A DNA stretch of 64,000 bases from Candidatus Aenigmatarchaeota archaeon (GCA_016432325.1 CP066684.1:608001-672000); one strand, 5' to 3'; counted from the first letter of the stretch, positions 12,436-33,118 are shown. Notes: a model not told the origin generated them from the letters alone. Made by a program: numbers and translations.

Positions 12436-12677
12436 GCTGGGGTAGCAAAGCTTGGTATGCGCCTTTTTGGGCATCTCGGAATGGAACATTCCGAGTTTTC
12501 GGACGCGGTCCGAAAACGTCCGCCCAAAAACCCGCGGGAAAAATACGCTCCCGCAAGCGACCAACTGCGCCGGATTGCTAATCCGGTGGGCGCAAGCCCG
12601 CGCGAGTTCAAGCGCCTTTTTGCTGCGGCAAAAACCCGCGGGAAAAACGGCACGAACGAATCTCGTCCCCAGCGCCA
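12436..12677 (+). tRNA. tRNA-Ser(GCT) with 2 introns: D arm ~12459-12565, T loop ~12612-12659
   Basis: GCTGGGG/CCCCAGC acceptor stem, CCGGA-TTGCTAA-TCCGG anticodon arm, long variable arm, encoded CCA, BHB pairings at both introns. Confidence 0.93.
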
Positions 12678-12807
12678 AAAGCCTTTTACGAAAAAGCTTT
12701 GGCAAGAATATGTTACGCGCGCACAGGCAGGCCGCAACCGCTTTTATATCCTAGGCCGCACGAGAGAAACATGAACTTATGGATGCCACAAACGGGGGGG
12801 GGTTCGC

Positions 12808-13989
12808 ATGAACCTCATGACTAAGGCCGTTATCGTATTTCTTCTGATTGGCGTATTGCCCGTCTCAGTACTAACGTATGTAGGCATAAGCCAGATGGAA
12901 AAGAGTTACACAGAGAGCGTCGGCACTACTCTCGAACTGTCTCTCCAGAGCGCCGTCTCCGGGCTCATAGAATATTTCCAGCGCATATTGGTCGAGACTT
13001 CCACAGACTCCAAGGACCCGGTAATCGCAAAAGAGCTGTCGGGCATAGAGGCCGGCGGTTCGCCTGCGACGCTCAACGCTCACCTGTCCAAGACGCTTAC
13101 GCGGCCGCCGGTGATTCCGACGCTCAACGCAACGCTCAAGGGAATACAGGCAGTCGTAGTCACTGACGCGAACGGCAGGATAGTCTCTTCGACTCATAAC
13201 TCGCTGATAGGCGGCGACGTGTCTCAGGAGTTCTTCTTCAAGCAGGCCGCCGGCAGCGGCGCGGGAACCAACGCGAACACCACTTACTTCACCGGAATAG
13301 TCGACCATCCGCTGGTTCTGGCCAACGCGGTCAAGGAAGACGGCAGGACAATCGGGGTATACGCCGCGGTTCACGACATCTCGGACTTGGCCAACGTCAT
13401 GCAGGGAGAGTCGAGCCGCGAACTGCTCGTCAACTCAAGAGGCGATTTGACGGCGTTCGACAACTTCGCCAATCTCGAATCTATATCGATATACGCGACC
13501 ACTGTCACCCAGACCGTATCGATAGCGCCGTCGCAGAATCCCGACCTCGTCGGCAGGACCATCGATATATACCCGGTTAACTTGTGCACGGCGGAAGGAA
13601 AGTCCTACAAGGGCGAATACGTCAACTACGACGGCATCACCGTCATCGGCGCGGTCCTCTGCGGCGCCGCGAGGACTGCATTCATCGCGGAAATTCCAAA
13701 GGACGAGGCCACGCAACCGCTCCAGAGTGCCAAACAACTCTTCCAGGGAATGGCGTTGATTATGGGAGCTCTCATAACAGTGGCTCTCTATGCGTTCCGC
13801 TCCCACATAATCAAGCCGATAGGCAGGCTGACCGAAACGATAAACAGCATCAGCATGGGCCGCTTGGACGTTGAAGTCGAGGGCAAGGAACGCAAGGACG
13901 AGATAGGCGATCTGGCGCGCGCCTTCGAACGCACCGTGGTCAGCCTCAAGCTCGCCGCGCTCGGCAAAAACAAGGAAAAAGAGAAGTGA
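12808..13989 (+). CDS. Membrane sensor: TM, Cache-like region, TM, HAMP, with no output domain
   Basis: Two TM segments; HAMP motif KPIGRL...RKDEIGDLARAF just before the stop. Confidence 0.8.
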   Translation: MNLMTKAVIVFLLIGVLPVSVLTYVGISQMEKSYTESVGTTLELSLQSAVSGLIEYFQRILVETSTDSKDPVIAKELSGIEAGGSPATLNAHLSKTLTRPPVIPTLNATLKGIQAVVVTDANGRIVSSTHNSLIGGDVSQEFFFKQAAGSGAGTNANTTYFTGIVDHPLVLANAVKEDGRTIGVYAAVHDISDLANVMQGESSRELLVNSRGDLTAFDNFANLESISIYATTVTQTVSIAPSQNPDLVGRTIDIYPVNLCTAEGKSYKGEYVNYDGITVIGAVLCGAARTAFIAEIPKDEATQPLQSAKQLFQGMALIMGALITVALYAFRSHIIKPIGRLTETINSISMGRLDVEVEGKERKDEIGDLARAFERTVVSLKLAALGKNKEKEK

Positions 13990-14204
13990 GGCCGATGGCC
14001 GCAACTTCGTCGCGGGAGTCTGTTGACAACCTTTTTCGCACCTATCTCGGCCCGATGGCAATCGTGGTTCTTCCGGACCTAGAAAAGAAGGGCCTGACAA
14101 AGGAGCGCGTGCTGTCGTACATAGACGACCTGCAGAAGAAAGGCGTCCTCGGCGCTGACTCGGCGGTCAAGTTCAAGAGGGAGATTGAGGCTGTTTTCGC
14201 GTAG
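13986..14204 (+). CDS. Small hypothetical protein coupled to the HAMP sensor gene
   Basis: Overlapping start/stop (or ATG at 13995) and plausible codon usage. Confidence 0.65.
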   Translation: MRPMAATSSRESVDNLFRTYLGPMAIVVLPDLEKKGLTKERVLSYIDDLQKKGVLGADSAVKFKREIEAVFA

Positions 14205-14476
14205 GCGTCTGCTTTAAGAAGCTTTCTACACAAGTCAGAGCGTGGTATCATGGAAGGTTATACAGGCTGCATGGATACGTCGTACGAAAAGATAGCGAAT
14301 CGCTTTGTGAGACACGGATATCCGAGCGGCGGCCCAGACCATCCGGTGCCCGACATGCCAGAGCATCTTCCTGTTCACCCGAGAGGCTATATCCCGCCAA
14401 GCGCGCAGATGGGCCCGAACCACTACTTGTGGAGGCTCTAAACAGTTTTATAGCTACTCCTTTCATTCTGCCCTAC

Positions 14477-14680
14477 GGGCCGGTAGTCTAGAAAGCTTTT
14501 CAGAAAGGCTTTAGCAAAACACGATCTGAAAGTTTGGACAATGGTTATGACGTCGCCCTATGCAAGCCGTTTCGATTGTTTGCAGACGACTACAAGGCGA
14601 AGGTCGCAAGTTCGAACCGGGCTTTTTAGAAAAAAGCACGGGTGCAAAAAACGCACGCGAGAATCTTGCCCGGCCCACCA
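14477..14680 (+). tRNA. tRNA-Val(TAC) with 3 introns: ~14492-14541 (15/16), ~14560-14590 (33/34), ~14617-14663 (59/60)
   Basis: GGGCCGG/CCGGCCC acceptor stem, TCGCC/GGCGA anticodon stem, GTTCGAA, CCA; upstream TTTATA box. Confidence 0.9.
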
Positions 14681-14715
14681 ATCCTCAATAAATACATGCA
14701 TCGATTAAACCGCTC

Positions 14716-15501
14716 ATGCTCTTCGTAGGAATCGACTTGGCGTGGTCGCCGAAGAACGGCAGCGGTCTTGCGGTGATGCGGTCCGACGGCACTTTGCAAG
14801 CGAGCGCGGTTCTGTATTCAAACGAAGAAGTTGTTGAATACGTGCACGCACAGGTTCAACAGAAGAATGCGCTGGTTGCCATAGACGCGCCGTTGGTGGT
14901 GCCGAACGAAGAAGGTCGGCGCGTCGCTGAAGCTATCGTGGGCAACCTTTTCAGAAAATACAACGCCGGCGCGCATCCTTCGAACCGCAAACGCCTGGGA
15001 CAGTGGGGAGGCCGGCCGCGCGGCGAGGTCATAACAGAGCTTCTCGGGAAGAAGGGCTTCGTCCACGACCCGTTCTTGCGGCAGCACGAAGAGTCGAGAA
15101 AGGTCTTTGAGGTCTATCCGCACCCTTCGATGGTGGTGTTGTTCAATCTCGAAACTGTCATACCGTACAAAGCGAAGCCGAAACGCAGTTACGAATCGAG
15201 ATGGAACGCTTTCGTCCAGTATCAGAAACACATGCAATCTTTGGGCAAGGCGAACCCGCCGGCGGTCCTCGGCGATATTGTAACGAAAGACGTTCGTGCG
15301 ATGAAAGGCAACGCCCTCAAGAGCTACGAGGATGCCTTGGACGCGATATTCTGCGCGTACATCGCCTACTATTACTGGTCTTTGCCGGAGAAGTGCGCCG
15401 TCCTGGGGACGATGAAAGACGGCTACATTTTAACGCCTATATTTGACCGCATGCGCGGCGCATTGAAACCCAAAGGCGTCCAGACGAAACTTACGCTCTG
15501 A
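14716..15501 (+). CDS. DUF429-like RNase H-fold nuclease
   Basis: FVGIDLAW, AIDAPL, FEVYPH and EDALDA motifs. Confidence 0.82.
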   Translation: MLFVGIDLAWSPKNGSGLAVMRSDGTLQASAVLYSNEEVVEYVHAQVQQKNALVAIDAPLVVPNEEGRRVAEAIVGNLFRKYNAGAHPSNRKRLGQWGGRPRGEVITELLGKKGFVHDPFLRQHEESRKVFEVYPHPSMVVLFNLETVIPYKAKPKRSYESRWNAFVQYQKHMQSLGKANPPAVLGDIVTKDVRAMKGNALKSYEDALDAIFCAYIAYYYWSLPEKCAVLGTMKDGYILTPIFDRMRGALKPKGVQTKLTL

Positions 15502-15970
15502 CCCATTCTCCGCGGTCGCCGTTCCTGCGTTTGTCTGCCATGGCGAGCTCGTCGAGGATACCGTCGATGAGATTGTATTTCTTCGCCTCTTCGAAAGTTA
15601 CCCAAGTGTGTTCTACGGCTTCCTCTGCCTGGAGTCTGACCTCGCCTCCTTTCCAATCGGCCATGCAGGAAATGACTATGGACGGCGAACCGTCCGCGTG
15701 TATTGTGGCCAAGCTCGTCACGTAATCAATGTTCGTTATATCCAAACCGACCTCTTCCATTACCTCGCGACGGAGCGTGCGCTCGAGAACGTTGTACCAG
15801 TATGCCTGCGTGTCTTTCGGATGCTGCGTATAGTCCGAGGTTTCGAGCTTGCCGCCCGGGACGGTCCACATGCTCGGGAAGCGTTTCTTATTCGGGTGGC
15901 GTTTTATAATCAGGTATTTCCCGTCTTTTACGACTATCGCGGTTATGACGACTTCGTGCAGATGCGACAT
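15491..15970 (-). CDS. NUDIX hydrolase
   Basis: PGGKLE...LRREVMEEVG Nudix box. Confidence 0.9.
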   Translation of the reverse strand: MSHLHEVVITAIVVKDGKYLIIKRHPNKKRFPSMWTVPGGKLETSDYTQHPKDTQAYWYNVLERTLRREVMEEVGLDITNIDYVTSLATIHADGSPSIVISCMADWKGGEVRLQAEEAVEHTWVTFEEAKKYNLIDGILDELAMADKRRNGDRGEWVRA

Positions 15971-16031
15971 GTTACTCCAGAAGTCTAGGCGATTCCTCGA
16001 TTTAAATACGCTTCGTCGTAAACGAGTCCGG

Positions 16032-16224
16032 GCTCCCATAGTCTAGACCGGCCAAGCTTCCCGCCCTTGCGGGGCAGGAAGAAGCCGAGAGGATCCCGCC
16101 CTTTCAAGTCAGACTTGAAAAACTGTAGGTTGTAAAACCAATGACATGGGCAGGCGGTGACTCGGGAAAGCCTTTTGAGAAATGCTCAAGGGCTTCGAGA
16201 CTTCAAATCCCGATGGGAGCACCA
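16032..16224 (+). tRNA. tRNA-Glu(TTC) with 3 introns: ~16055-16089, ~16107-16151 (37/38), ~16167-16201 (53/54)
   Basis: GCTCCCA/TGGGAGC acceptor stem, CCGCC-CTTTCA..A-GGCGG, TCGGG..TTCAAATCCCGA, CCA. Confidence 0.9.
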
Positions 16225-16239
16225 CTAATTTTCTGTAAA

Positions 16240-16647
16240 CTAGTAGGGGAGCCGTGGCTTCCATTGGCGCGGAACACTGCCGTAATCGATGAGAGGAATG
16301 ACGTGCCTTGCATGTATTCCGTATTCTCCGGCCACCTTTCTAACAGGACCGCTGACGTCTACGAGCGGGAATTTCTTCGCCGCAATCTTTTTAGGAACTT
16401 CCACCAACGGCTTGATAGGCAGGAACTTGCTTCCTTCCTTGGGCTTGGTGTGCAGCGCGTATGCGGGTTCTGCTGTGAAATATCCTCTGGTAATGACCTT
16501 GTCGCCTGCCCAATCCTCCCCTTCGAGAATCAGGTCTGCCAGATGAATGCGCGCTCCGTATTTCTTGTGAATCGTTGCTTCCAGCGCGTCGTATGCTCGC
16601 GCCTTTTCCATGTCGCGCGGAGGTCCCCACGCGCTTTTGGTCGCCAT
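16240..16647 (-). CDS. Hypothetical protein
   Basis: 135-aa ORF filling the gap between genes. Confidence 0.6.
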   Translation of the reverse strand: MATKSAWGPPRDMEKARAYDALEATIHKKYGARIHLADLILEGEDWAGDKVITRGYFTAEPAYALHTKPKEGSKFLPIKPLVEVPKKIAAKKFPLVDVSGPVRKVAGEYGIHARHVIPLIDYGSVPRQWKPRLPY

Positions 16648-16708
16648 GGTTCAATTGAACATGGCAAACTATTAATACCCGGCGGTTAACGTTCGTAAAG
16701 GCGATTCC

Positions 16709-16912
16709 ATGCTCAGGATAGAAACCAGAGACGAAAAGATAGGAAACCTCGTCGGCTTCTGGGCCGGAATGGCGGTCTTCGCGAGCATGTTCTACTATCT
16801 GTCCACGAACGTCGCGCACCACGCATGGCCTATAGGATACGTGGAGCTGATGACAGCGCTCACCGTTCTTTACATAATCGCGCGATTTGCAAGAGGCGAA
16901 CTCACGATATGA
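16709..16912 (+). CDS. Small membrane protein in the carbamoyltransferase cluster
   Basis: Two hydrophobic helices; overlaps the next start codon. Confidence 0.7.
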   Translation: MLRIETRDEKIGNLVGFWAGMAVFASMFYYLSTNVAHHAWPIGYVELMTALTVLYIIARFARGELTI

Positions 16913-17154
16913 GTTTCAAGGAGTTCGCAACCGGTTTCAAGTCGGGCTTCCAGGGCTTCGGCCATTTTGTCAGCGACGTTGTGAACTTCGTGCTGCTCAC
17001 GTTCGTCTGGCTCATAGGCATCGGCCCGGCGTCTGTTCTGGGCAAGTTTACAGGCAAGAAGTTCCTCGACATGGAACTCGTTATGAGAGAGAGTTACTGG
17101 GTTGCGTACGTAGTGAAGACCGAGCCGCTCGAGAGCTACGAGAAACAGTATTGA
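16909..17154 (+). CDS. SxtJ-like small membrane protein
   Basis: VNFVLLTFVWLIGIGP...ESYW...YEKQY pattern and position before the carbamoyltransferase. Confidence 0.7.
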   Translation: MSFKEFATGFKSGFQGFGHFVSDVVNFVLLTFVWLIGIGPASVLGKFTGKKFLDMELVMRESYWVAYVVKTEPLESYEKQY

Positions 17155-17162
17155 GGGATGGA

Positions 17163-18908
17163 ATGGTCAACGTTCTGGGCATATCCGCGTACTTCCACGA
17201 TTCGTCCGCGGCGCTCGTCAAGGACGGCGTCGTCGTTGCCGCAGCGGACGAGGAGCGCTTCACGCGCGTCAAGCACGACAATGCGTTTCCGATAAACGCG
17301 ATAAACTACTGCCTGAAGGAAGGAGGCGTCACCGCCGAACAAATAGACTACGTCGCGTTCTACGAAAAGCCTTTCATAAAATTCGAGCGCGTCCTGAACC
17401 AGTTCCTGCAGTCCTTCCCGAGTGGCGGATACACGTTTTACAAAGCGATGCCTCCATGGCTCACGCAAAAACTGCGCATACGCCAGACCCTGCGCAAGAA
17501 GCTCGGCTTCCGCGGACGCACGCTGTTCCTTGAACACCACATGGCCCACGCCGCGTCGTCTTATCTCGCTTCTCCGTTTGACGAGTCCGCGATACTCACC
17601 ATAGACGGCGTGGGAGAGATTACGACGGCCGCGTGCGGATACGCGAAAGGCAATGACATCACGCTGACGAGACGTCTGGAATTCCCGCACTCTCTCGGTC
17701 TTCTGTACAGTACTATAACGGCGTACCTCGGCTTCAAGGTCAACAACGACGAGTACAAGGTGATGGGTCTCGCGCCTTACGGCAAGCCGACGTACTACGA
17801 CAAGCTCCGCAAGACTCTCGCGATAGGCGAAGACGGAAGCGTCCATCTCGACATGAGATACTTCGTCTATACGAAAGAACTCTCAATGGCCGGGAAGAAG
17901 CTCTTCGAAGAGCTGGGCCCGCCACGCAAACGGGAAGAACCTGTCGAGCAGATGCACAAGGACATCGCCGCGAGCGTCCAGAAGATAACAGAGGAGGTCA
18001 TAATCAAGATGGCCCGTTCGGTTTACGAAGAAACCAAATCAAAGAACCTCTGCGTGGCGGGCGGCGTCGCGCTGAACAGCGTCGCCAACGGCAAGATTCT
18101 CAGGAGCACGCCTTTCGAGAACATCTTCATCCAGCCTTCTGCAGGCGATTCAGGAACGAGCCTCGGCGCGGCGCTCTACGCGTACAACACTATTCTGAAG
18201 AATCCGAGAAAGTACGTGCAAACGCACGCGTATCTCGGCCCCGGATATTCGCGCGACCAGATTAAGAAATATCTGGACGAGAACAAGATTGTTTACAGCG
18301 AGTTCCGTGACGAACGCGAACTCCTCCAAAAGGTCTCCAAGCTAATCTGGGAGAACAACGTCATCGGCTGGTTCCAAGGAAGGATGGAGTGGGGACCGCG
18401 CGCGCTCGGCGCCCGTTCGATTCTTTCGAATCCGTGCAACCCCGAGATGAAGGACATTCTGAACCTGAAGGTAAAGCACCGCGAAGCGTTCCGCCCTTTC
18501 GCGCCTGCCGTGTGCGTCGATGATGCGGACGAGTACTTCGAGTGCGACGTTCCCGTGCAAGCGCCTACGGACTACATGCTGATGGTCTATCCGATACGCG
18601 AAGAAAAGCGCGCGCTCTTGCCGGCGGTGACGCACGTGGACGGTTCCGGTCGTCTGCAGACAGTACGCCGCGAACAGAATCCTCTTTACTACGACCTAAT
18701 CAAAGAGTTCGGCAAGCTGAGCGGCGTTCCTGTTCTGGTAAACACGTCGTTCAACATCCGCGGAGAGCCCATCGTTTGCGAACCGCGGCACGCGTACAGA
18801 TGCATGATGGGCACTGGAATCGATTTTTTGGTCATGGATAAGTTTTTAATAGCCAGAAGTGCCAATCCGAAGGACATGTGGGACAGCGAAAAGGTAGCGG
18901 GCGATTAA
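17163..18908 (+). CDS. Carbamoyltransferase (NodU/CmcH family)
   Basis: LGISAYFHDSSAA, EERFTR, EHHMAHA, GPRALG and NTSFN motifs. Confidence 0.95.
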   Translation: MVNVLGISAYFHDSSAALVKDGVVVAAADEERFTRVKHDNAFPINAINYCLKEGGVTAEQIDYVAFYEKPFIKFERVLNQFLQSFPSGGYTFYKAMPPWLTQKLRIRQTLRKKLGFRGRTLFLEHHMAHAASSYLASPFDESAILTIDGVGEITTAACGYAKGNDITLTRRLEFPHSLGLLYSTITAYLGFKVNNDEYKVMGLAPYGKPTYYDKLRKTLAIGEDGSVHLDMRYFVYTKELSMAGKKLFEELGPPRKREEPVEQMHKDIAASVQKITEEVIIKMARSVYEETKSKNLCVAGGVALNSVANGKILRSTPFENIFIQPSAGDSGTSLGAALYAYNTILKNPRKYVQTHAYLGPGYSRDQIKKYLDENKIVYSEFRDERELLQKVSKLIWENNVIGWFQGRMEWGPRALGARSILSNPCNPEMKDILNLKVKHREAFRPFAPAVCVDDADEYFECDVPVQAPTDYMLMVYPIREEKRALLPAVTHVDGSGRLQTVRREQNPLYYDLIKEFGKLSGVPVLVNTSFNIRGEPIVCEPRHAYRCMMGTGIDFLVMDKFLIARSANPKDMWDSEKVAGD

Positions 18909-18909
18909 T

Positions 18910-19059
18910 ATGGGAATGGCAAGCGAACTCGTCGGATTTTTGGTGAAAGAGAAGAAGTGGTGGCTCGTTCCGGCGGTCGTGCTGCTGCTCGTCGTCGGAA
19001 TACTGATAATATTTGCCGCAGCTTCGCCTGTCTCGCCCTTCATCTACGCGCTGTTCTGA
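18910..19059 (+). CDS. SxtK-like (DUF5989) small membrane protein, absent from the ORF track
   Basis: 49 aa containing KEKKWWLVP and SPVSPFIYALF. Confidence 0.85.
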   Translation: MGMASELVGFLVKEKKWWLVPAVVLLLVVGILIIFAAASPVSPFIYALF

Positions 19060-19178
19060 CGATGAGCCCGTTAAATGCCTTCAAGCCGTGTTTCTGACCA
19101 AAACCTTTATATAGCCCCCCAGCGCCCTTTAAAACGTACTTTACGCGGTTCGATAATTCAGAAACAAACGGGGGTGAA

Positions 19179-19346
19179 ATGATGGCTGTTATAGTTAAGA
19201 GCGCGGTCAAGGACTGCTGCAAGGGTTTCAACGTCAGCGCAGACTTCTACGGCGCGTTGGACTCTTCTGTGCAGAACGTGATAAAGGCCGCTTCGAAGCG
19301 CGCGTCGGCAAACGGTCGCAAGACCGTGCAGGCGAGAGACCTTTAA
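19179..19346 (+). CDS. Short histone-fold protein (DUF1931-like), absent from the ORF track
   Basis: MMAVIVKSAVKD...NVSADFYGALD...KRASANGRKTVQARDL, preceded by a GGGGTG SD. Confidence 0.85.
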   Translation: MMAVIVKSAVKDCCKGFNVSADFYGALDSSVQNVIKAASKRASANGRKTVQARDL

Positions 19347-19409
19347 TTAAGACAGAACCTCGGGGTTCTCCGTCTTTTCTTTTTTATTCTCCTTTTTTCC
19401 ATTGTTCTT

Positions 19410-19751
19410 ATGCCCGGACAAGGAACCGCGTTCCACCATCTGCACAAGCGCATTCGCGTCCACAAGAAGCTCGAGAAGTATCCGCACCCGGACAGGCTCA
19501 CGAATGCAATGGACAAGCTCATCTACGTGGTGTCCATAATAATGCCGCTTCTGACCGTGCCTCAGGTGCTGACTGTTTGGTTGGACGGAAATGTTTCCGG
19601 ACTGTCTCTGGTTACTTGGGTGTCGTATCTCGTCGCGTCCGTATTCTGGCTGGCTTACGGAATTCTGCACAGGGAGAAGCCGATTATCATATCGAACGTC
19701 CTGTGGATAGTGGTGTTCGCGTTTATCGTCGTTGGAATAATGATGCGCTAG
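19410..19751 (+). CDS. SemiSWEET/PQ-loop family transporter
   Basis: TVPQV, GLS and FWLAYG motifs; three TM segments. Confidence 0.8.
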   Translation: MPGQGTAFHHLHKRIRVHKKLEKYPHPDRLTNAMDKLIYVVSIIMPLLTVPQVLTVWLDGNVSGLSLVTWVSYLVASVFWLAYGILHREKPIIISNVLWIVVFAFIVVGIMMR

Positions 19752-19754
19752 AAG

Positions 19755-21494: not shown

Positions 21495-21746
21495 CTATCC
21501 ACCTGAGAACGGGTTTTTGTATCCGTACGGATTGGCCTCGTCAAAGGCGTTCGTATCCGGTATCTTGTTGGTCGCCTCGAACGTTTGGCCCAGTTTCTCC
21601 GTGCCTGCGCCGAACGAAAGGTCGGGCAGGAACAGGCCGTTGCCTCCCGCACCGCCTAAAAGGAAGTAGCCGGCGCCTATCAGAATGACGATGCCGACAG
21701 CTACTATGGCTATTGTAGGTATCTTCTTGCCCTGTTTTTCAGCCAT
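21495..21746 (-). CDS. Small single-TM protein co-transcribed with the Cys-rich protein
   Basis: MAEKQGKK start, one TM helix, abuts the next ORF. Confidence 0.7.
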   Translation of the reverse strand: MAEKQGKKIPTIAIVAVGIVILIGAGYFLLGGAGGNGLFLPDLSFGAGTEKLGQTFEATNKIPDTNAFDEANPYGYKNPFSGG

Positions 21747-21853
21747 CGAATCTCCTTTATATCGCACTTATAAAAAGCTTTAGAACGGCTATATCGCAGC
21801 GCGGGGGTTCAGGAAACGCAAGCGTTTCAACACCCCCTCGCCTCGAAGTGCAT

Positions 21854-22093: not shown

Positions 22094-22122
22094 TTTTTAT
22101 TCTACACCTACCAAATTACGCC

Positions 22123-22287: not shown

Positions 22288-22289
22288 CG

Positions 22290-23505: not shown

Positions 23506-23560
23506 GGCTTCTGCAACCACGCGATATTGAAATAGCTCTTCCTCCAATCAATCGTCGGGT

Positions 23561-24649: not shown

Positions 24650-25153
24650 ATGCTTTTGCACGCAATGGAGAGCATGCGATTCTTGGACGGGGCAGAAGCA
24701 GTTGAAGCCGAACGGTTCACCGCGGAAGCCGTGACTGTTGCGAGGCGTTCTCCCTGCGAGAAATCCAAGCGCGGAGTCATCATAGTCAGCGACAGCGAAG
24801 TGATAGGCCGCGGGTACAACAAGCCGCCTGCGGACGTGCCGTGCGTCGAGGAGTTCTGCGGCCTGATATGCAGGAAATATTGCGTTCACGCCGAGACGAA
24901 CGCCGTAATGGACGCGCTGCGCGGCGGCCATGAACTGAAGGGCTCAAGAGGCTATCACATCAAGGTGAAGGGCGGCGCCGTGCGAGATTCCGACGACCTC
25001 TCTTGCGTGCCGTGCGCCGCGCTCGTGCTGGAAAGCGGAATGGGTGAGTTCGTCCTCAAACATCCCCGCGGATTCGCGGTCTATGGCGCGCGGGAGTTCT
25101 ACGAACTGTCGTTAGACGCCTTTATTAGGCAGAAAAGCTCCAATGGTAAGTGA
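24650..25153 (+). CDS. dCMP deaminase-like zinc-dependent deaminase
   Basis: GYN, HAE and CxxC motifs. Confidence 0.82.
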   Translation: MLLHAMESMRFLDGAEAVEAERFTAEAVTVARRSPCEKSKRGVIIVSDSEVIGRGYNKPPADVPCVEEFCGLICRKYCVHAETNAVMDALRGGHELKGSRGYHIKVKGGAVRDSDDLSCVPCAALVLESGMGEFVLKHPRGFAVYGAREFYELSLDAFIRQKSSNGK

Positions 25154-25380
25154 TTGCAATGTGCTTCACGAAACAGCAGCTCTGGACCGTCGCAGCCGTG
25201 ATTTTCGGCTTGGTGACGTTGCTTCACGCCCTTCGGCTCGCCAACAACTGGGCTGCGCAGATAGGCCCTTACGTTATACCGATTTGGTTCAGCTGGATTG
25301 CTGTCGCCGTTGCAGCGTACCTCGCATACGAGTTCTGGAAGCATTCCGGAGAGAAACCGGCCAAGAAAGGAAGGAAGTAA
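25150..25380 (+). CDS. Small membrane protein
   Basis: Two TM helices, LLHALR motif. Confidence 0.7.
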   Translation: MIAMCFTKQQLWTVAAVIFGLVTLLHALRLANNWAAQIGPYVIPIWFSWIAVAVAAYLAYEFWKHSGEKPAKKGRK

Positions 25381-25424
25381 TGAAACCGTTGTTTCAAACT
25401 TTCTTCGTATGTCTCGGAAAGTAG

Positions 25425-25892
25425 TCAGCGTTCCCTGAGTCCTTTCTCCCGCGCGATGGTCTTCATGGCCTTGAGTATTCTTGCCTTGCTCACTTCGTCC
25501 GCTTTCTCGAAAACAGACCTCAACTCGTGGTCGTGCTCTTTGTAGAGCCCTGTCCAGTGCCTCTCGACACGAGACTGACTATAGTCCTGGACTTCTCCGG
25601 ACAGAGCGCCTCTCTGGTGATCGTAACCCGCGAGCTTCAGCAGCTCTTCCTTTTCGGACGGGCTGCAGCCGTAGAACTTCAGGGCGGTCGCAAGGAATTC
25701 GTAGGACGGCCTGCCGGGAACGCCGTCGTGGCCGCGGCCTGTTTCTATGTTGTATATGTGGGCTGTGGAGACTCCTACCTGTTTCGCCACGACCTCGCGC
25801 CTCATGCCCAAGTCTTCGCGCTTGACGCGCAGCAGTTTGCCTAGGCGTATCAGCTCTTTCGCATGGCGCCTGTTGTAAGCCCTGAGTCCCAT
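25425..25892 (-). CDS. XRE-family HTH regulator
   Basis: LRVKREDLGM..VAKQVGVS..HIYNIETG...PS pattern. Confidence 0.85.
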   Translation of the reverse strand: MGLRAYNRRHAKELIRLGKLLRVKREDLGMRREVVAKQVGVSTAHIYNIETGRGHDGVPGRPSYEFLATALKFYGCSPSEKEELLKLAGYDHQRGALSGEVQDYSQSRVERHWTGLYKEHDHELRSVFEKADEVSKARILKAMKTIAREKGLRER

Positions 25893-26091
25893 TCCAGCAC
25901 CATAGCCATTAACCGCAGGAAGCAATTTAAACCGGACGGGCGCGCCGTTTGAACGTATTTAAAGACTGTACGCGAATCGGAGTACGGTGCTGACAATGCG
26001 CGGTGTTAGTCTTCATCCGGGAATGTAGGAAACCTGTTAGCCGCGCATATTCGAATTCTGAAGTTATAAACTCTGCCTGCGAGGTGTCTCT

Positions 26092-27357
26092 ATGACCCAG
26101 TCGCCTAAAGGCACGCAGGACTTCGGTCCCAAGGAAGCGATGGCGCGTGGCGAAATGATAGGCGCGCTCAGGCAGGTATTCCAGCTCTACGGCTTCGAGC
26201 CTCTCGAAACGACGTCTCTTCAGAACTTCGAGGTTCTCTCTTCAAAGTACACAGGCGGCGCGGAGATTCTCAAGGAGACTTACAAGCTCGAAGACCAAGG
26301 CGGGCGCAAGCTCGGATTGCGATACGATCTCACGGTCCCTCTCGTGCGCTTCATGGCCGAGAACCGTTCGCTCGCCAAGCCGTTCAAGCGCTACGAGATA
26401 GGAAAGGTGTGGCGCGACGGCCCTCTCAAGGCCGGGCGCTATCGCGAATTCATGCAGGTCGACGCTGACGTCATCGGCGTAACGAGCGTCGCTGCCGAGG
26501 CCGAACTGCTGGCGATGGCCCAGACGTTTTTCAAGGCGCTGGGAATCGACGCTGTGATAAAGTACAACAACCGGAAGGTTCTGAACGGCCTGCTCAAGAA
26601 GTTCAGCATTCCCGAACGCGAGTGGAATGGCGTGCTCCAGAGCATGGACAAGCTCGAGAAGATGGGGCGCGCTTACGTGGAGAAGGAACTCACGGAGAAA
26701 GGCGTCGACAAGGGCGTGGCCAAGGACGTCGTGGAGATTATAGCAAAGACCAAGGACCTCGAGCTGCTCACAGGCGTCATAGACAACGACGTCGGAAGGA
26801 AAGGCATCGAAGAGCTTCTGGCGCTGCAGGAGTATCTGGTCTATCTCGGCGTCGATACGGCAGAGTGGGACCTTTCGCTTTCGCGCGGTCTGGATTACTA
26901 CACAGGCACGGTCTTTGAGGCGTTCTTTACCGGAGGGAAAGTAACGTCTTCGATAGCCGGCGGCGGCCGTTATGACAAGATGATAGGCGCGCTCATCGGC
27001 TCAAAGGAAGACGTGCCGGCGGTCGGCATTTCGTTTGGTCTTGACGCGATACTGGACGGCTTTGCGCTGGAGCGCGAGCGAACGATAACGCGCGTGCTTG
27101 TCGTCCCTATAAACGCTCTGGACTACGCTCTCACTGTCGCGCAGGCGATCCGCGCGTGGAACGTAAATACTGAAGTCGACATGATGAACCGTAACTTGTC
27201 AAAGAACCTTGACTACGCGAACAAGAAAGGAATTGCGCGTGTGATAATAGTAGGAGAGAAGGAGAAGAAAGAGCAGACCGTTACATACAAGGATATGGAG
27301 AGCGGCAAGCAAGAAACAGACACGTTAGAAAAACTGAAGAAGAGAATAGTTTCGTAG
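26092..27357 (+). CDS. hisS: Histidyl-tRNA synthetase
   Basis: PKGTQDF, LRYDLTVP, GRYREF, RGLDYYTG and GGGRYD motifs. Confidence 0.97.
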   Translation: MTQSPKGTQDFGPKEAMARGEMIGALRQVFQLYGFEPLETTSLQNFEVLSSKYTGGAEILKETYKLEDQGGRKLGLRYDLTVPLVRFMAENRSLAKPFKRYEIGKVWRDGPLKAGRYREFMQVDADVIGVTSVAAEAELLAMAQTFFKALGIDAVIKYNNRKVLNGLLKKFSIPEREWNGVLQSMDKLEKMGRAYVEKELTEKGVDKGVAKDVVEIIAKTKDLELLTGVIDNDVGRKGIEELLALQEYLVYLGVDTAEWDLSLSRGLDYYTGTVFEAFFTGGKVTSSIAGGGRYDKMIGALIGSKEDVPAVGISFGLDAILDGFALERERTITRVLVVPINALDYALTVAQAIRAWNVNTEVDMMNRNLSKNLDYANKKGIARVIIVGEKEKKEQTVTYKDMESGKQETDTLEKLKKRIVS

Positions 27358-27365
27358 ATACGGAT

Positions 27366-27594
27366 GGCTGCGGTGGTGTTAGCCTGGATAACACGCTTTT
27401 TCAAAAAGTGTGAGAAGCCAGCAAGCATGCAGGCCTGTGGTCCGAGCTTTTGAGAAAAAGCTCGAGCAAAAACGACGAAGCCACGGACAGATAGCCTGAG
27501 GGGCGAGTTCAAACCGGGCTTTTCTTTCGCAAAGAAAAGCACGGGTGCAAAAGAAACTTTTGCGCCCACCGTGAAATTCTCGCCCGCGGCCCCA
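27366..27594 (+). tRNA. tRNA-His(GTG), G-1 encoded, with 3 introns: ~27390-27423, ~27441-27492 (37/38), ~27514-27577 (59/60)
   Basis: G-GCTGCGG/CCGCGGC-C-CCA, CAGGC-CTGTGG..A-GCCTG, clean BHB helices CTGG/CCAG, CTGT/ACAG and TTCA/TGAA. Confidence 0.93.
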
Positions 27595-27616
27595 TTAACC
27601 TTTTCTAAGAGCGGCC

Positions 27617-28408
27617 TCACTCAAGTCCTCTGATGAAAAGGAAGACGAAATACGCCACTATCATGGAAACGGCGTAGGACAAGACGGTTCCGAGAACCAG
27701 ACCGTACGCGACGTAGAAGTATCTCAAGGCGAGACCATACGAAGCGCCAGTCAACATTCCGCTAAAGAACAGAGGCTTCGTCACCGACCGGGCAAACGCC
27801 AAGCCTCCGGTCCTGTTCGTAATGAACAACGTGGACATGTACACGGCTGGGAATGGGGAGAAGATGCCGCCAAAGACAGGGCCGCCGACTTTGCTCATGA
27901 ACACGGCAAGCGCGACAATCAATCCGCTAAGGAGCGCGCGGCCCGCTATCTGCAGATGCGTATAGCGCATGCGCAATCTTCCGGCGGAGGGAAGCTTCAA
28001 CCTCTTTTCAAATATCACGAACGATGCCACGAGTATTGAAACGTAGCCAACAGCGGAAAGCGCGAAGTTCTCTATACCGAACACTACAAGCGATGAAACC
28101 AGCGAAGCCCATAGAAGAAGCGATGCAACGAATGCAACGCCGAAACCTCTGTCAGCCAACAGCGCGAAGGACACCAAGAACAGACCGGAGAAGGCCACGG
28201 ATAGCAGGAACCCGTTGGTCGCCTGTGCCGCAACGGCCGGCGACTGGTTGAGGCCGATGAACAGGAATGCCACGACCATCGTGGATGGCAGGCCGCCGAT
28301 GAACCCGCCTATTTTGCTTCCAAACCGCTCTGCGGCCACAGTAACCAGCGTTATCCAGACGCCCCCGACTATGAAAGCAAACAGCAGATTTACTGCGAAA
28401 GAATCCAT
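27617..28408 (-). CDS. Polytopic membrane protein (DUF3147-like duplicated unit)
   Basis: ERFGSKIGGFIGGLP and GPVFGGIFSPFP repeat units. Confidence 0.75.
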   Translation of the reverse strand: MDSFAVNLLFAFIVGGVWITLVTVAAERFGSKIGGFIGGLPSTMVVAFLFIGLNQSPAVAAQATNGFLLSVAFSGLFLVSFALLADRGFGVAFVASLLLWASLVSSLVVFGIENFALSAVGYVSILVASFVIFEKRLKLPSAGRLRMRYTHLQIAGRALLSGLIVALAVFMSKVGGPVFGGIFSPFPAVYMSTLFITNRTGGLAFARSVTKPLFFSGMLTGASYGLALRYFYVAYGLVLGTVLSYAVSMIVAYFVFLFIRGLE

Positions 28409-28494
28409 CGTTGTCTACTCTCCGAGAGGCCATTTAAAAGCGTTGACGCCGTGCGTTGCATCACGGCAATCGCATCCGAACGCTCATAAACAAA

Positions 28495-28507
28495 GCTTAA
28501 ATACCTT
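28495..28507 (+). promoter_or_regulatory. TATA box of the 16S rRNA transcription unit
   Basis: GCTTAAATACCTT; the identical 13-mer precedes the 23S gene at 35087-35099. Confidence 0.75.
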
Positions 28508-28780
28508 CTTCGCGCTCTTCAGTGCACTAAAAGCAGGGGAAGCGTACGCGAGGATCCCTGTTCTACAGCCGCGCGGCGAGCAGGCTTGAATTTCCGTACG
28601 CGAGTACGGATGATGATTGCCATCGGAAACCTTTGTTTCCGAGGCGCCGGGAACCGTGTTCCCGTGCGTCTGCATTCATGTTGCGGCTACAAGTTCCATA
28701 ATCACCACAGACGACGAGTCGGGGTGCCTGAAACTTCAAGGACGGGTTTCGTTAACGATGGGACGGATTGAATAGTTCTG

Positions 28781-28812
28781 CTATTCGATTGGCAGGCGAA
28801 TACTTGTTGGTG
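28781..28812 (+). other. 5' arm of the 16S processing stem with a BHB motif; partner arm at ~31325-31357
   Basis: CTATTCGATTGGCAG-GCGAA-TAC-TTGTTGGTGT pairs with GCGCCAACAA-TTCGC-ATA-CTGCCAGTCGAGTAG. Confidence 0.85.
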
Positions 28813-28911
28813 TAATTTCAAGACTAAAGTTTTGAAATAAAACTGACTCTGCAAGGGTCAGTGTTCACCGCACTTACCATAACGCAAGTTGTGGTAGGGC
28901 TTGGAAAGAAA

Positions 28912-28944
28912 GTTTCGAGATTTTCTGGTAAACAGAAAACTTGA
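28912..28944 (+). repeat. Leader hairpin shared with the 23S leader (35705-35737)
   Basis: GTTTCRAGATTTTCTGGTAAACAGAAAACTTGA, 32 of 33 nt identical. Confidence 0.92.
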
Positions 28945-29626
28945 AAACGGATTTTCAAGACAATTCCAATAGAAAGTGTGCAGTTAACTCCCAATCGAAG
29001 TTCTCGTACTGTTGATGAAATATCGTAGGACCTACTTTGAGACAGAGCGTTGTTAGGGATAACAGACGCTGGGAACATACGTTCGATTGAAATAATTCTG
29101 GTTGATCCCGCCAGAGGTCACTGCTATCTGGATCCGATTAAGACATGCTAGCCGAGTGCGAAAGCACGGCAGACGGCTCAGTAACACGTAGTCAACCTGC
29201 CCTCAGGTAGGGGATAACCCCGCGAAAGTGGGACTAACACCCTATGGGGAAAAGATACTGGAATGTTCTTTTCCTGAAAGGCAACGCCTGAGGATGGGAC
29301 TGCGGCGGATTAGGCTGTTGTTGGGGTAAAGGCCCAACAAACCTATAATCCGTACGGGCGTTGAGAGACGTAGCCCGGAGATGGGCTCTGAGACAAGAGC
29401 CCAGGCCCTACGGGGCGCAGCAGTCGCGAAACCTTTACAATGGCTTCACGGCCGATAGGGGGATCCAGAGTGAGTGCGCAATGCGTACTCTTTTGCCGAG
29501 TCTAAACAGCTCGGAGAATAAGGGGTGGGCAATACGAGTGCCAGCCGCCATCTTGCGTAGGACGGAAACTTTTCCGCCCTTGCGGGACGGAAAACGGTAA
29601 TACTCGAGCCCCGAGTGGTGACCACG

Positions 29627-29657
<31 letters not shown>

Positions 29658-30340
29658 GGACAAGTTCCTAGTGAAATCCTGCGTTAAACGCGGGGCGTGC
29701 TGGGAAGACTGTCCGGCTTGGGACCGGGAGACGTTAGCAGTACTCCAGGGGTAAGGGTAAAATCTTATCATCCTTGGAGGACTACCTGTGGCGAAGGCGG
29801 CTAACGAGAACGGCTCCGACGGTGAGGGACGAAAGCGTGGGGAGCAAATGGGATTAGATACCCCAGTAGTCCACGCTGTAAACGATGCCCCCTTGATGTC
29901 GCGTCTTCTTCGGGAAGACGCGGTGTCGTAGAGTAGTTGTTAAGGGGGCCGCCTGGGGAGTACGGCCGCAAGGTTGAAACTCAGCAGAACGTTCGTTCTG
30001 AACGTTCGTTGCGAGCAACGAACTTAAGGGAATTGGCGGGGGAGCACTTCAAGGGGTGGAGGCTGCGGTTCAATTGGATTCAACGCCAGACATTTTACCA
30101 GGGGTGACAGCAGGATGAAGGTCAGTCTGAAGGGCTTACCTGACGCGCTGAGAGGAGTTGCATGGCCATCGTCAGCTCGTACCGTGAGGCGTGCGCTTAA
30201 GTGCGTTAACGAGCGAGACCCACGCCCTCTGTTGCTATCTTGTCCTCCGGGATGAGAGCACTCTGAGGGGACCGCCGGCGATAAGTCGGAGGAAGGAGTG
30301 GGCGACGGTAGGTCCGTATGGCCCGAATCTCCTGGGCTAC

Positions 30341-30862
30341 ACCGAGTCCAGGCTAGCGAGGAAGAGCAAATGTTTTGGAACGAAAGTTTCAGGATACGTT
30401 GAACCGTTTTTGATTGTGCTAACGGCATGCTACTTACGAAAGTAATAGTATATCCGTCACGCACAAACCTTTACATGAACCCTGATTTAGCATATCTGAT
30501 AGGTCTCATCGGAGGCGACGGTTCGCTGACTTACAAGAAAGGAAGCGAATACCGTGTCTCAGTCGTTGACGAGTGCTTGGAATTTCATGAGCACGTCGTC
30601 AAACCTACAATGGATGCGACTTTCAACAAAGCCGCGTACGAATATCCGCGCGTCGCTCTGCAGGTTGCAAACAGTGGTATCAGAAACGAATTGGTCGAAC
30701 TTCTGAAGAGGTTTGGCATCGCACCGAGCGTTTGGAAGTACAAGCAAATGTTCGGTTTGCAAATAATCGGTTTCGATAAGGTTAGGCTGTATTCAGAGAA
30801 TGTCGGTTTTCGGCATCCCTCGAAACAGAAACGGTTGCTCGAGCTGCTTGGCTTGGGGCCTA
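30341..30862 (+). mobile_element. BHB intron (522 nt) in 16S rRNA carrying a LAGLIDADG homing endonuclease ORF
   Basis: GGCT/GGCC central helix with two 3-nt bulges; removal restores GGGCTACACGCGG. Confidence 0.9.
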
Positions 30863-30945
30863 ACGCGGCCTACAATGACCCGGACAAAGAGTTGCCACGC
30901 CGAAAGGCGGAGCCAATCTCTAAACCGGGCCTTAGTTCGGATTGA
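30427..30945 (+). CDS. Intron-encoded LAGLIDADG endonuclease, probably degenerate; no stop codon within the linear intron
   Basis: LAYLIGLIGGDGSL motif; the genomic ORF runs on into the 16S exon. Confidence 0.8.
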   Translation: MLLTKVIVYPSRTNLYMNPDLAYLIGLIGGDGSLTYKKGSEYRVSVVDECLEFHEHVVKPTMDATFNKAAYEYPRVALQVANSGIRNELVELLKRFGIAPSVWKYKQMFGLQIIGFDKVRLYSENVGFRHPSKQKRLLELLGLGPNAAYNDPDKELPRRKAEPISKPGLSSD

Positions 30946-31142
30946 GGGTTGAAACTCACCCTCATGAAGCCGGAATCCCTAGTAAGCGGGTGTCACTATC
31001 ACTCGCTGAATACGACCCTGCTCCTTGCACACACCGCCCGTCAAGCCATGCGAGTGTTCCCTTGATGAGGCTTGGGTTATTGCCCAGGACGAATCGAGGG
31101 GACGCGAGCGGGGCTAATCTCAAGGAGTTCATCTCAGAACAA

Positions 31143-31199
31143 GATGATTAAACTGGCTTGACTCTGACAAAATATGAGGAGTCTTGGAGGTGGAATGAT
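31143..31199 (+). ncRNA. Putative C/D-box guide sRNA inside the fourth 16S intron
   Basis: ATGATTA-guide-CTGA-ATGAGGA-guide-ATGA layout; TGGCTTGAC is complementary to 16S 31040-31048. Confidence 0.55.
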
Positions 31200-31369
31200 T
31201 GCTTGAGAGCTCCTGGGAGCCTAGAGTCGTAACAAGGTAGCCCTACGGGAACGTGGGGCTGGATCACCTCCTATATCTTTTCTCTGTCGTTACAGACGGA
31301 GATTGGATTATAACCGGTGTACAAGCGCCAACAATTCGCATACTGCCAGTCGAGTAGTTTTTTATCGAA

Positions 31370-31960
31370 TTAGCGCGAGCTATGCCGCGATTGTTTATTG
31401 CGTTTGAATGTCTTGCGTTTTTCGTCAAGCAGATTGTAAAATTCGACGAGCGTCTTGTTCCTGATTTCGCCTGTCCTGATTTTCTCGCTTACGCCGTCCC
31501 AGAACGGTTGCAGGTCCATCGAATGCTCCCTTTCATACTCGAATGCCTGCAAAACCATCTCAAGCTTATCCAGTTCATAAACGAGCTGCGCCTCCTTTGT
31601 TTGGCGCGTCTCGTACTCGTCCCAGAGTTCCAGAAACTCCTTCCGATTGGCAAAAAGACCGGACAGCTCCTTCATCGCCGCCGTCTCCATGGCGGGTTTG
31701 GTGGCATAGTCCGCGCGACCGACAGGAATATCGCCTATTACCGACTCTCCGAGGTCGTGTATCAATGCCATCTTGACCATTCTGTTCCTGTCCGCACCGA
31801 GTTCGTCTGCCAGAGCGAATGCCATCAGAGCGACGCGGAACGAATGCTCGGCGACAGATTCGGGATGCGGTACGTTGTGCAAAACCCAGCCGGTTCTTCG
31901 TATCTTCTTCAGCTCTCCCGACCTCAACAGCAGCTTCAGTGCCTTCTCAAGCTCGACCAT
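31370..31960 (-). CDS. HD-domain phosphohydrolase (YfbR/HDDC2-like)
   Basis: LKKIRRTGW, ESVAEHS, IHDLGE and LDKLE motifs. Confidence 0.92.
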   Translation of the reverse strand: MVELEKALKLLLRSGELKKIRRTGWVLHNVPHPESVAEHSFRVALMAFALADELGADRNRMVKMALIHDLGESVIGDIPVGRADYATKPAMETAAMKELSGLFANRKEFLELWDEYETRQTKEAQLVYELDKLEMVLQAFEYEREHSMDLQPFWDGVSEKIRTGEIRNKTLVEFYNLLDEKRKTFKRNKQSRHSSR

Positions 31961-32009
31961 GAGCCTGTTTGGCGTTCTGTTTAAATAACTTCGCATCGTC
32001 CGCTTCCCT

Positions 32010-32891
32010 ATGAGAGCCAACCTTCACGTGCATACGACGATATCCGACGGCAAGAACGGTCCCGAAGAAGTCGTACGCATAGCCAAGGCAGGCAATGTGG
32101 ATGTTATCGCCATAACCGACCACGATGCGACAGAAGGAATCGGCCGCGCCGTCAACGCGGGGCACAATCTTGGGATCTACGTCATTCCTGGCATAGAGGT
32201 CAGCGCCAGCCATCTAGGGGAGAGCGTCCACATTCTGGGCTACTTCGTCGACACCGAAGCCGGCGGCTTCACGGATTTCATAGAGTCGCAACGCAGAAAC
32301 AGGAACGAAGTCCTTGCAAACAGAATAGCAAAGGTCAACGGACATCTCGGAACGGATCTGACTCTGGAGGGCGTGGCAGGCGATTCGCTGACGCCAACGA
32401 AGGCGCATCTTGGCGACGCGATTGTCGCAAGGGGCTTTGCCACGGACGTGAGGGACGCAATAGAGAAGTACCTGTCTAAAGGCACGCCGTGCTACGTCCA
32501 GAGCGAGCGGGACCCGGCGCCTCAGGAAGCGGTGCGCATCATTCATGATGCCGGAGGGCTGGCCGTCTGGGCCCATCCTCTATATCCGTCAAAGATAAAG
32601 GAGTTCGATCACGCAGAGCTGTTCGCGGAGCTGATAGACGCGGGCCTCGATGGGGTGGAACGCCATTTCGACTACGAAGACAAGACGCCTGAGATACCGC
32701 AGGCGCTGCTCAAGACTTTTGAAGAACTTGCTTCCCAGAATGGCCTGCTCTCGACAGGCGGCAGCGATTACCACGGCTACTGGAAGCGTGCCAAGATAGA
32801 TCAGACAGTCGTCGGGGACGATGTTGTGAACGCCCTTCTCGGCAGGAAGAGAAAGTCGGACATGCGTTGTTTAAATAATCCGCCGGCTTAA
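32010..32891 (+). CDS. PHP-domain phosphoesterase (TrpH/YciV-like)
   Basis: LHVHTTISDG, AITDHD, HILGY, AHP and GGSDYHG motifs. Confidence 0.92.
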   Translation: MRANLHVHTTISDGKNGPEEVVRIAKAGNVDVIAITDHDATEGIGRAVNAGHNLGIYVIPGIEVSASHLGESVHILGYFVDTEAGGFTDFIESQRRNRNEVLANRIAKVNGHLGTDLTLEGVAGDSLTPTKAHLGDAIVARGFATDVRDAIEKYLSKGTPCYVQSERDPAPQEAVRIIHDAGGLAVWAHPLYPSKIKEFDHAELFAELIDAGLDGVERHFDYEDKTPEIPQALLKTFEELASQNGLLSTGGSDYHGYWKRAKIDQTVVGDDVVNALLGRKRKSDMRCLNNPPA

Positions 32892-32901
32892 TCGCGAACA
32901 G

Positions 32902-33118
32902 GGGCCGGTGGTCTAGTGGAAGCGCCTTTTTGCCGCGGCAAAAACCCGCGGGAAATCCGCTGACGCCACAATGACGTCTGCTTTGCATTCGCGAAACTTC
33001 GAAATGAAGTTTCGTACGCACAAAACAGCAGAAGGCCGTGGGTTCAAAGGCAAACGCCTGCGTTTGCATTCCGGGTTCGCCTGTGAATTCAACGCCGAAA
33101 TTCCCACCCGGTCCACCA
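32902..33118 (+). tRNA. tRNA-Ala(TGC) with 3 introns: ~32922-32971, ~32988-33026 (37/38), ~33049-33101
   Basis: GGGCCGG/CCGGTCC acceptor stem with G3:U70, TCTGC-TTTGCA..A-GCAGA, CCA. Confidence 0.92.

Follow-up and report, generated by a model that had tools for sequence, protein, structure and literature searches.

How do introns at unrelated positions in different tRNA genes come to share one body when the 3' end of each fits its own exon? The question is raised by three introns of the tRNA-Ser(GCT) and tRNA-Ala(TGC) genes in a 64,000-nucleotide stretch of DNA (hereafter the window) from a Candidatus Aenigmatarchaeota archaeon (GCA_016432325.1, CP066684.1:608001-672000). The host is a groundwater DPANN archaeon (Aenigmatarchaeota) whose genome, designated G000, is a single contig of 874,869 bp with 55.9% GC, the window corresponding to G000:C1:608001-672000. 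All three introns carry the same two-part core, GCGCCTTTTTG...CAAAAACCCGCGGGAA. The matter bears on how archaea acquire non-canonical tRNA introns. The original prediction, made from the window sequence, was that a fixed 5' module is put in place and a site-specific partner strand generated or selected for it, which would amount to de novo intron formation. We consider it fairly probable instead that the core is a movable body exchanged inside existing bulge-helix-bulge (BHB) introns, and that the short exon-matched tails are older and reside at their sites.

Three introns with a common core

ARAGORN and the Rfam tRNA model found no tRNAs (0) in the raw DNA of the window. Because these programs miss most tRNAs on raw DNA, a purpose-written solver was used that strips candidate BHB introns and checks the product for a cloverleaf. 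Genes were located by a 7-bp acceptor stem and an encoded CCA, and products were validated by ARAGORN. The tRNA-Ser(GCT) gene spans 12436-12677 on the plus strand (exons 12436-12458, 12566-12611 and 12660-12677), with a 7-bp acceptor stem and an encoded CCA. Once its introns are removed it yields a perfect type-II cloverleaf, which ARAGORN accepts; the unspliced gene is missed by both ARAGORN and Rfam.

Intron 1 of this gene (107 nt, 12459-12565, plus strand) ends in ...GCG ACCA AC and lies at position 22/23, in the 3' strand of the D stem, which corrects the D-arm placement given originally. It has a strict BHB motif, with TGGT/ACCA forming helix H (4/4 pairs) and CGC/GCG forming helix h' (3 bp). 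The invariant 5' half of the core, GCGCCTTTTTG, is found at 12459-12469 (plus strand) and the invariant 3' half, CAAAAACCCGCGGGAA, at 12525-12540 (plus strand); both are identical in 11 aligned copies from three genomes. Within the 5' half, the G provides the third bulge nucleotide, CGCC the strand that enters h', and T5G the 5' arm of a hairpin, P1. The 3' half supplies the 3' arm of P1, the 5' strand of a second hairpin, P2, and the start of the second A tract. The minimum free energy (MFE) fold contains h', P1 and P2, and the two additional hairpins reported for this copy are nested in the P1 (T5G/CA5) loop.

Intron 2 (48 nt, 12612-12659, plus strand) interrupts the T-loop at 58/59. It carries a short-loop form of the module and the tail CGGCAC GAAC GA, with GTTC/GAAC forming H (4/4). 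The tRNA-Ala(TGC) gene (32902-33118, plus strand), identified by the solver and ARAGORN, sits between the 16S and 23S rRNA genes and has G3:U70, an encoded CCA and three introns. Only the first of these (50 nt, 32922-32971, plus strand), in the D-loop two nucleotides 3' of G19, concerns us here. It also has a short-loop module, with the tail ATCCGCTGACG CCAC AA, H formed by GTGG/CCAC (4/4) and h' by CG/CG.

The shared start and the shared internal sequence of these introns were thus confirmed, the solver returning the same three introns: GCGCCTTTTTG occurs at 12459, 12612 and 32922, and CAAAAACCCGCGGGAAA at 12525, 12629 and 32939, the latter giving three matches in the window where 0.04 are expected by chance. 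The claim that their differing 3' ends pair with the local exon also held, TGGT/ACCA, GTTC/GAAC and GTGG/CCAC each being Watson-Crick at 4/4 positions in the register that the BHB motif demands.

Copies in the genome and in other species

To the three copies in the window the whole genome adds others for a total of 10, distributed across 9 tRNA genes and all on the sense strand. Four are in Ser genes (Ser(GCT) 22/23, Ser(GCT) T-loop, Ser(GGA) T-loop and Ser(CGA) D-arm), five in the D-loops of Ala(TGC), Val(CAC), Val(GAC) (a T4/A4 variant), Arg(TCG) and a CAT-anticodon tRNA, and one in the anticodon loop of Gly(TCC) at 37/38. The module therefore does occupy different tRNA sites, in the D, anticodon and T regions. 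Searches with nhmmer (--max, without filters) and a covariance model detected no copy outside tRNA genes in G000 or in G001, a genome of the same genus; they added no copy in G000 and found only one in G001. The latter was taken whole (540 kb in 90 contigs, coding DNA ∼70-83% identical to that of G000). Note that G001 contigs break within tRNA genes (L108 end, L075 start, L076 end, L038 start), as expected from assembly collapse at repeated modules, so that module counts in fragmented metagenome-assembled genomes (MAGs) are lower bounds.

A scan of 185,579 species genomes recovered the exact core in G001 and in G041, an “uncultured archaeon” MAG. When 11 copies from the three genomes are aligned, 27 columns show no variation. 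The Met D-loop copy of G000, whose borders are uncertain, was left out of the 11-copy border count. In 9 of the 11 copies the 5' edge of the core is at the splice site (offset 0), and in Gly(TCC) and G041 Arg(TCG) it is at +2. The expectation that the module always starts exactly at the 5' splice site thus holds for most copies and fails for these two, where it starts at intron nucleotide 3. The G041 core lies in the D-loop of tRNA-Arg(TCG), with closing stem GCGCC/GGCGC and tail GGGC-AA. The site is orthologous to that in G000, and exon and tail covary between the genomes (GCTT/GGGT in G000 versus GTCC/GGGC in G041).

Such invariance might mean that the core is a functional RNA under purifying selection, one that might enhance splicing by the DPANN-type EndA endonuclease or serve it as a platform, or might persist as a stable circular intron RNA, and that mobility is not involved. 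All 27 of 27 core positions are invariant over 11 copies and three genomes, although mature tRNA-Arg is just 74.7% identical between G000 and G041 and the 27-nt core 100% identical; moreover, all copies are on the sense strand and the T/A helix is fixed 5 nt from the core's 5' end. We regard this as an unlikely explanation, given that other modules occupy orthologous sites and that related copies in the genome G139 stand outside RNA genes, both described below. Function and mobility are, in any case, not mutually exclusive.

Fold and splice motif

In 10 of 11 copies, intron nucleotides -6 to -3 are the perfect 4-nt partner of exon nucleotides -6 to -3, forming H, and two bulge nucleotides follow; the Gly copy pairs at 3/4. 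Eight exon/tail pairs are represented: TGGT/ACCA, GTTC/GAAC, GTGG/CCAC, GCGG/CCGC, GGTT/GACC, GCTT/GGGT, GTCC/GGGC and CTTC/GATG (3/4). Helix h' is formed by CGCC(TT) of the core with (AA)GGCG immediately upstream of H', the core's first G being the third nucleotide of the 5' bulge. MFE folds are Y-shaped, h' closing both P1 (T5G/CA5 plus 1-3 more pairs) and P2 (CCCGCGGG paired with CCGC or CCTGCGGG). P1 is paired in 100% of cells, and its extension pairs are compensatory, with the variants C/G, GGC/GCC, CGC/GCG, CAC/GTG, AGC/GCT and GCC/GGC; this pattern was matched by 0 of 500 shuffles. The part of each tail that is matched to the exon consists of the last 6 nt only, and the remainder mostly pairs with the core itself.

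The closing stem CGCC(TT)/(AA)GGCG in the folds, together with the 10 dispersed copies, is a trait of miniature inverted-repeat transposable elements (MITEs). Two other structural origins were tried and rejected. A module bounded by its own BHB, as in a nested intron, gave no consistent candidates, and an origin of the tail from an inverted target-site duplication fails because the last 6 nt of the intron do not correspond to the reverse complement of the 6 exon nucleotides beside them.

Orthologous sites in relatives

Comparison with G001 and with G003, a genome from a different family of the same order, separates tails from bodies. At Gly(TCC) 37/38, G000 and G001 have the frame TG...(C)GATGAA in common, and the BHB is clean and canonical in G001. 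Inside this frame G000 has the module bearing the core (module-1) and G001 a CACCC-T4...A4-GCGTGCACGG module. The conserved TG at the start of the frame accounts for the core beginning at intron nucleotide 3. A reading that put this intron at 38/39 or 39/40, making the module flush with the splice site, was rejected in view of the canonical 37/38 BHB of the G001 orthologue. At the Met D-loop, homologous tails (ATGAA..CCGC...TAA, then AGAGC) surround unrelated bodies in G000 and G001. In the Ser(GGA) T-loop, G001 has the tail CGGCACGAAC-AA, which is also the tail of the G000 Ser(GCT) T-loop intron; the 30 nt upstream differ. In this same orthologous Ser(GGA) gene the two genomes differ in where the module sits, which is the D-arm for G001 and the T-loop for G000. 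At the Ala D-loop, the Ala(CGC) gene of G003 is interrupted at the same point by a 21-nt intron of unrelated sequence, which likewise ends in CCAC and two further nucleotides. The Gln D-loop intron is 26 nt in G000 and 65 nt in G001, where another module lies inside the same AAACC...GTTCCACA frame. An anticodon-loop intron of tRNA-His (near 37/38) is ∼90% identical between G000 and G001, and for this reason we attribute the non-homologous bodies elsewhere to replacement, not drift.

The CAT-anticodon tRNA of G000 (G000:C1:830562-830787, outside the window) deserves separate mention. Its D-loop tail reads GCCTAA where G001 has GCACTAA; the apparent deletion of one A leaves exon AGTG without its CACT partner, and an internal CCGC would fit GTGG. 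Judged from its sequence, this gene may be impaired, and its splice borders are uncertain.

These comparisons bear directly on the mechanism originally proposed, in which a dedicated process inserts the 5' module into a tRNA gene that lacks introns and makes a BHB partner strand for it, forming an intron de novo. The module does abut the 5' splice site, and the h' partners of the three long-tail copies (GGCGC, AAGGCG and GCGC) differ in register as if independently made. In family f5 the D-arm of the Ser tRNAs is uninterrupted, so that this site was gained within the lineage. Nonetheless, we consider de novo formation highly improbable. A fixed 5' module with a site-specific 3' partner is indeed present, but the generation of that partner is for the most part not supported: tails are conserved across species around other bodies, with the same tails on other bodies in G001 at Gly 37/38, the Met D-loop and the Ser(GGA) T-loop, and therefore predate the module at those sites. 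The G003 intron at the Ala D-loop, short and unrelated yet with its CCAC tail, also counts against it, as do the variation in module offset from 0 to +2, the lack of an inverted target duplication, and the failure to find a candidate enzyme.

A presence/absence polymorphism of an entire intron was seen in the D-arm of Ser(GGA). Here G000 reads GGTTTA-C-GGCGCC and is intron-free, and G001 has a 71-nt module-1 intron exactly at this point. The intron-less G000 allele is identical to what the G001 gene is predicted to yield on splicing, which confirms the predicted borders. The G001 intron is 82% identical over its full length to the D intron of G000 Ser(CGA). This appears, from the sequences compared, to be the only site showing gain or loss of a whole intron, and gene conversion would be enough to explain it, since the Ser genes have near-identical flanks: three of them have 22/24 nt in common in the 5' flank, and two have identical 3' halves. 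The anticodon-region intron of Ser(GGA) is orthologous in the two genomes (G001 L108:5860-5958 and G000:C1:60810-60905); the G001 copy has two added small hairpins in its T4/A4 loop, a nesting like that of the Ser D-arm copy in the window.

The Ser(GGA) D-arm is also the natural place to weigh whole-intron transposition of the Thermoproteales type, in which a transposed intron would persist where its 3' 4-mer happens to fit the 5' exon beside which it has landed, or once its tail has changed at one or two positions. Both the presence/absence and the 82% identity at this site would be expected of such a process. In addition, homology among the Val-CAC, Val-GAC, Ser-CGA and Ser-GCT D copies stops just 6-10 nt short of the 3' splice site, and some tails are one change apart (CCAC/CCGC, GACC/GAAC). 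At three orthologous G001 sites, however, the tails occur with non-homologous bodies, so that the tails predate the module there, and we think it improbable that transposition of whole introns accounts for the family.

Diverged relatives of the core

Module-1 appears to be one subfamily of a structured repeat that, from sequence comparison, is found across this archaeal class. A covariance model run over 151 class genomes identified diverged relatives, two of which start 16S rRNA introns in G145 and three of which are free-standing in G139. The G145 copies (L151:75-124, minus strand, and L155:1501-1548, minus strand) each begin at the 5' splice junction. In the AT-rich genome G139, a GAGCC-T5...A5-CCCTCGGG-AAA subfamily occurs at L152, L154 and L157, outside any detectable Rfam RNA gene and once as adjacent tandem copies. 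The free-standing copies indicate that the repeat class is not confined to introns.

Clamp and palindrome covary between subfamilies (GCG with CGC, GAG with CTC), which supports a long hairpin pairing the clamp with the palindrome. The three tracts covary as mirror images: in one of the two G145 copies they read TTTCTT/AAGAAA/AAAGAA, the third tract mirroring the second and having no Watson-Crick partner relation to the first. Further sets are TTTTCTTT/AAAGAAAA/AAAAGAAA in a G000 His intron and the coordinated T4/A4/A4 of Val(GAC); the T5/A5/A5 tracts are uninformative in this respect. Three-tract covariation of this kind is the sequence signature that would be expected of intrastrand triplex repeats.

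Scans of public metagenomes returned nothing, or one chance-like match outside tRNA genes. A bacterial MAG assigned to Marinicaulis (L145:5565-5605) contains an exact match to both core halves that is not associated with a tRNA. The chance expectation for matches of this kind in the database scanned is about 0.03, and chance, mis-binning and transfer are all candidate explanations.

A further reading is that the core is a self-propagating element homing to the BHB apex at the 5' splice junction of tRNA and rRNA genes. Homing could take place at the RNA level, with EndA and RtcB carrying out cleavage and ligation and the result later becoming fixed in DNA, or through recombination provoked by a DNA hairpin able to form a triplex. 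We hold this to be doubtful. If true, the core would represent an archaeal mobile intron module of a new class, and a source of non-canonical introns would have become visible.

Probable exchange of bodies within resident splice frames

The favored explanation, a movable body in older frames, would work as follows. The repeat opens with a GC clamp, followed by a T tract and a hairpin loop, then by the complementary A tract, a GC palindrome and another A tract. In the precursor tRNA, CGCC of the core and (G)GCG near the intron's 3' end pair to form h' of the BHB, with P1 and P2 branching off. The site-specific part is limited to the last 6-10 nt, made up of the 4-nt complement of the 5' exon (H) and two bulge nucleotides. 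This short splice frame would be older than the core and would stay put because the splicing endonuclease needs it. The exchanged unit would be the stem-closed body between the 5' bulge and H', moving within existing introns at unrelated tRNA positions. Whole introns would also be copied and lost among near-identical paralogues (the three Ser genes; the Ala and Val genes), gene conversion being the probable route. Selection that keeps the BHB cleavable would then account for the match of tail to exon and for the core lying 0-2 nt from the 5' splice site, and a process that generates tails is not needed. The anatomy, the count of copies, the covariation and the retention of tails around differing bodies between species are shown by the sequences. 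From these we infer that the introns are spliced, and that the body moved at the DNA level by insertion or replacement.

Several points weigh against this explanation. In the D-loop copies just 6 nt lie outside the unit, too few for simple insertion into a minimal intron to explain them, and precise replacement of a body would need a further mechanism. The flush 5' edge in 9/11 copies is tighter than selection alone obviously predicts. No match to a Y1/RAYT transposase (PF01797), TnpB (PF07282) or reverse transcriptase (PF00078) was found in G000. The BHB of the G000 Met D-loop copy is degenerate, one A of its CACT partner having been lost, and the fragmentation of G001 leaves just four comparable sites. 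The precise placement and the 27-nt invariance possibly reflect a contribution of the core to its recognition by EndA, or else a mobilizing activity that is sequence-specific and supplied in trans.

If the movable-body explanation is right, G000 separates two layers, a persistent splice frame resident at each site and an invariant structured body swapped among sites, the latter spanning tRNA regions and, in diverged form, rRNA introns. “Intron transposition” would then become a matter of defined units and junctions that can be tested.

Gene finding and other genes of the window

Rfam detected only the 16S and 23S rRNA genes in the window. On raw DNA of the whole genome, ARAGORN and Rfam count 8-12 tRNAs, the Rfam tRNA model exceeding its threshold only 8 times. 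Across 40 relatives of the class, the Rfam model gives 0 to 38 tRNAs per genome. From these low counts in G000 and its relatives we take heavily interrupted tRNA genes to be a lineage trait, and interrupted genes explain why standard tRNA finders see almost no tRNAs in these genomes. The solver predicts 43 introns in ∼20 confidently solved tRNA genes genome-wide. For Ser(GCT), Ala(TGC), Val(CAC) and Arg(TCG), removing the introns restores a canonical cloverleaf that ARAGORN accepts. Note that, without ARAGORN validation, the solver over-fits, producing hundreds of false four-intron solutions; low-scoring solutions were dropped. One gene for EndA is present (PF01974 match, 97 bits; G000:849784-850062, minus strand; open frame of 207 aa).

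The remaining introns of tRNA-Ala(TGC) are intron 2 (39 nt, 32988-33026, plus strand), at the canonical position 37/38 and without the module-1 core, and intron 3 (53 nt, 33049-33101, plus strand), in the T-loop at 59/60, which belongs to another intron family and has one A.C mismatch in H. Three further multi-intron genes in the window, all missed by ARAGORN and Rfam, are Val(TAC) at 14477-14680 (3 introns), Leu(CAG) at 16032-16224 (4 introns) and His(GTG) at 27367-27594 (3 introns). Many of their introns begin, at offset 0-3, with related modules that have a clamp, T tract, hairpin, A tract, GC hairpin and A tract.

The 16S rRNA gene contains a mini-intron of ∼46 nt (29541-29586) in the 530 loop, between GCCAGCCGC and GGTAATAC, in which GGACGGAAA tracts recur around one of TTTTCCGCCC. 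The 16S match extends over 2178 nt, compared with 1478 nt for the model, which points to larger insertions farther downstream. The 23S match is also ∼200 nt over length.

Comparison with known systems

A literature search on tRNA-intron repeats of DPANN archaea and Aenigmarchaeota found no description of the module. Transposed introns of the Thermoproteales reportedly keep the same tRNA position. The family described here resembles theirs in that near-identical introns occur in different isotypes of one genome (Ser, Ala, Val, Arg, Met and Gly) and in that the BHB requirement limits where copies persist. It differs in that only the stem-closed core is common, not the whole intron, homology stopping 6-25 nt before the 3' splice site; in occupying three tRNA regions (D-loop/22-23, 37/38 and 58/59), with diverged forms in 16S rRNA introns; and in the exchange of bodies inside conserved splice frames, in a DPANN host with a single EndA gene. 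The similar introns in different tRNAs of Thermoproteales have been attributed to transposition by an unknown mechanism (PMC4090602, PMC4033280), and served as a positive control in a 2026 census of Asgard introns, where copying, mobile elements and reverse transcription were each put to the test and no general route of arrival emerged (bioRxiv 10.64898/2026.10.13.758758).

Bacterial intrastrand triplex repeats of the ITxF/TMECO type have been linked to genomic rearrangement (Holder et al. 2015, PMC4666352). Like ITxF repeats, the module has a pyrimidine tract, a complementary purine tract and a mirror-image second purine tract, as judged here by sequence covariation. Unlike them, it occurs in archaeal hosts, in copies embedded in predicted spliced introns.

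REP, BIME and REPIN sequences and MITE-like repeats are short, hairpin-closed, non-coding units with many copies, nested loop insertions and short terminal inverted repeats. Our module is likewise a hairpin-closed multi-copy unit with nested loop insertions, and CGCCTT/AAGGCG serve as its terminal inverted repeats. In contrast to these elements, no RAYT/Y1 transposase or TnpB was found in G000 and no target-site duplication is visible, and the module-1 subfamily is found in G000 and G001 only in tRNA introns and only on the sense strand.

The closest parallel in splicing is with archaeal BHB introns cut by EndA, among which relaxed motifs are known in DPANN. In DPANN archaea, EndA variants of broad specificity accompany disrupted tRNA genes, and such introns have the same 4-bp helix, 3-nt bulges and pairing of exon with the intron's 3' end as those described here, the same non-canonical positions (22/23, D-loop and 58/59), multi-intron tRNAs and an encoded EndA (PMC3239211, PMC5829648). 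The splice motif is therefore identical in kind, and the novelty of the present introns is a conserved, exchangeable apical module.

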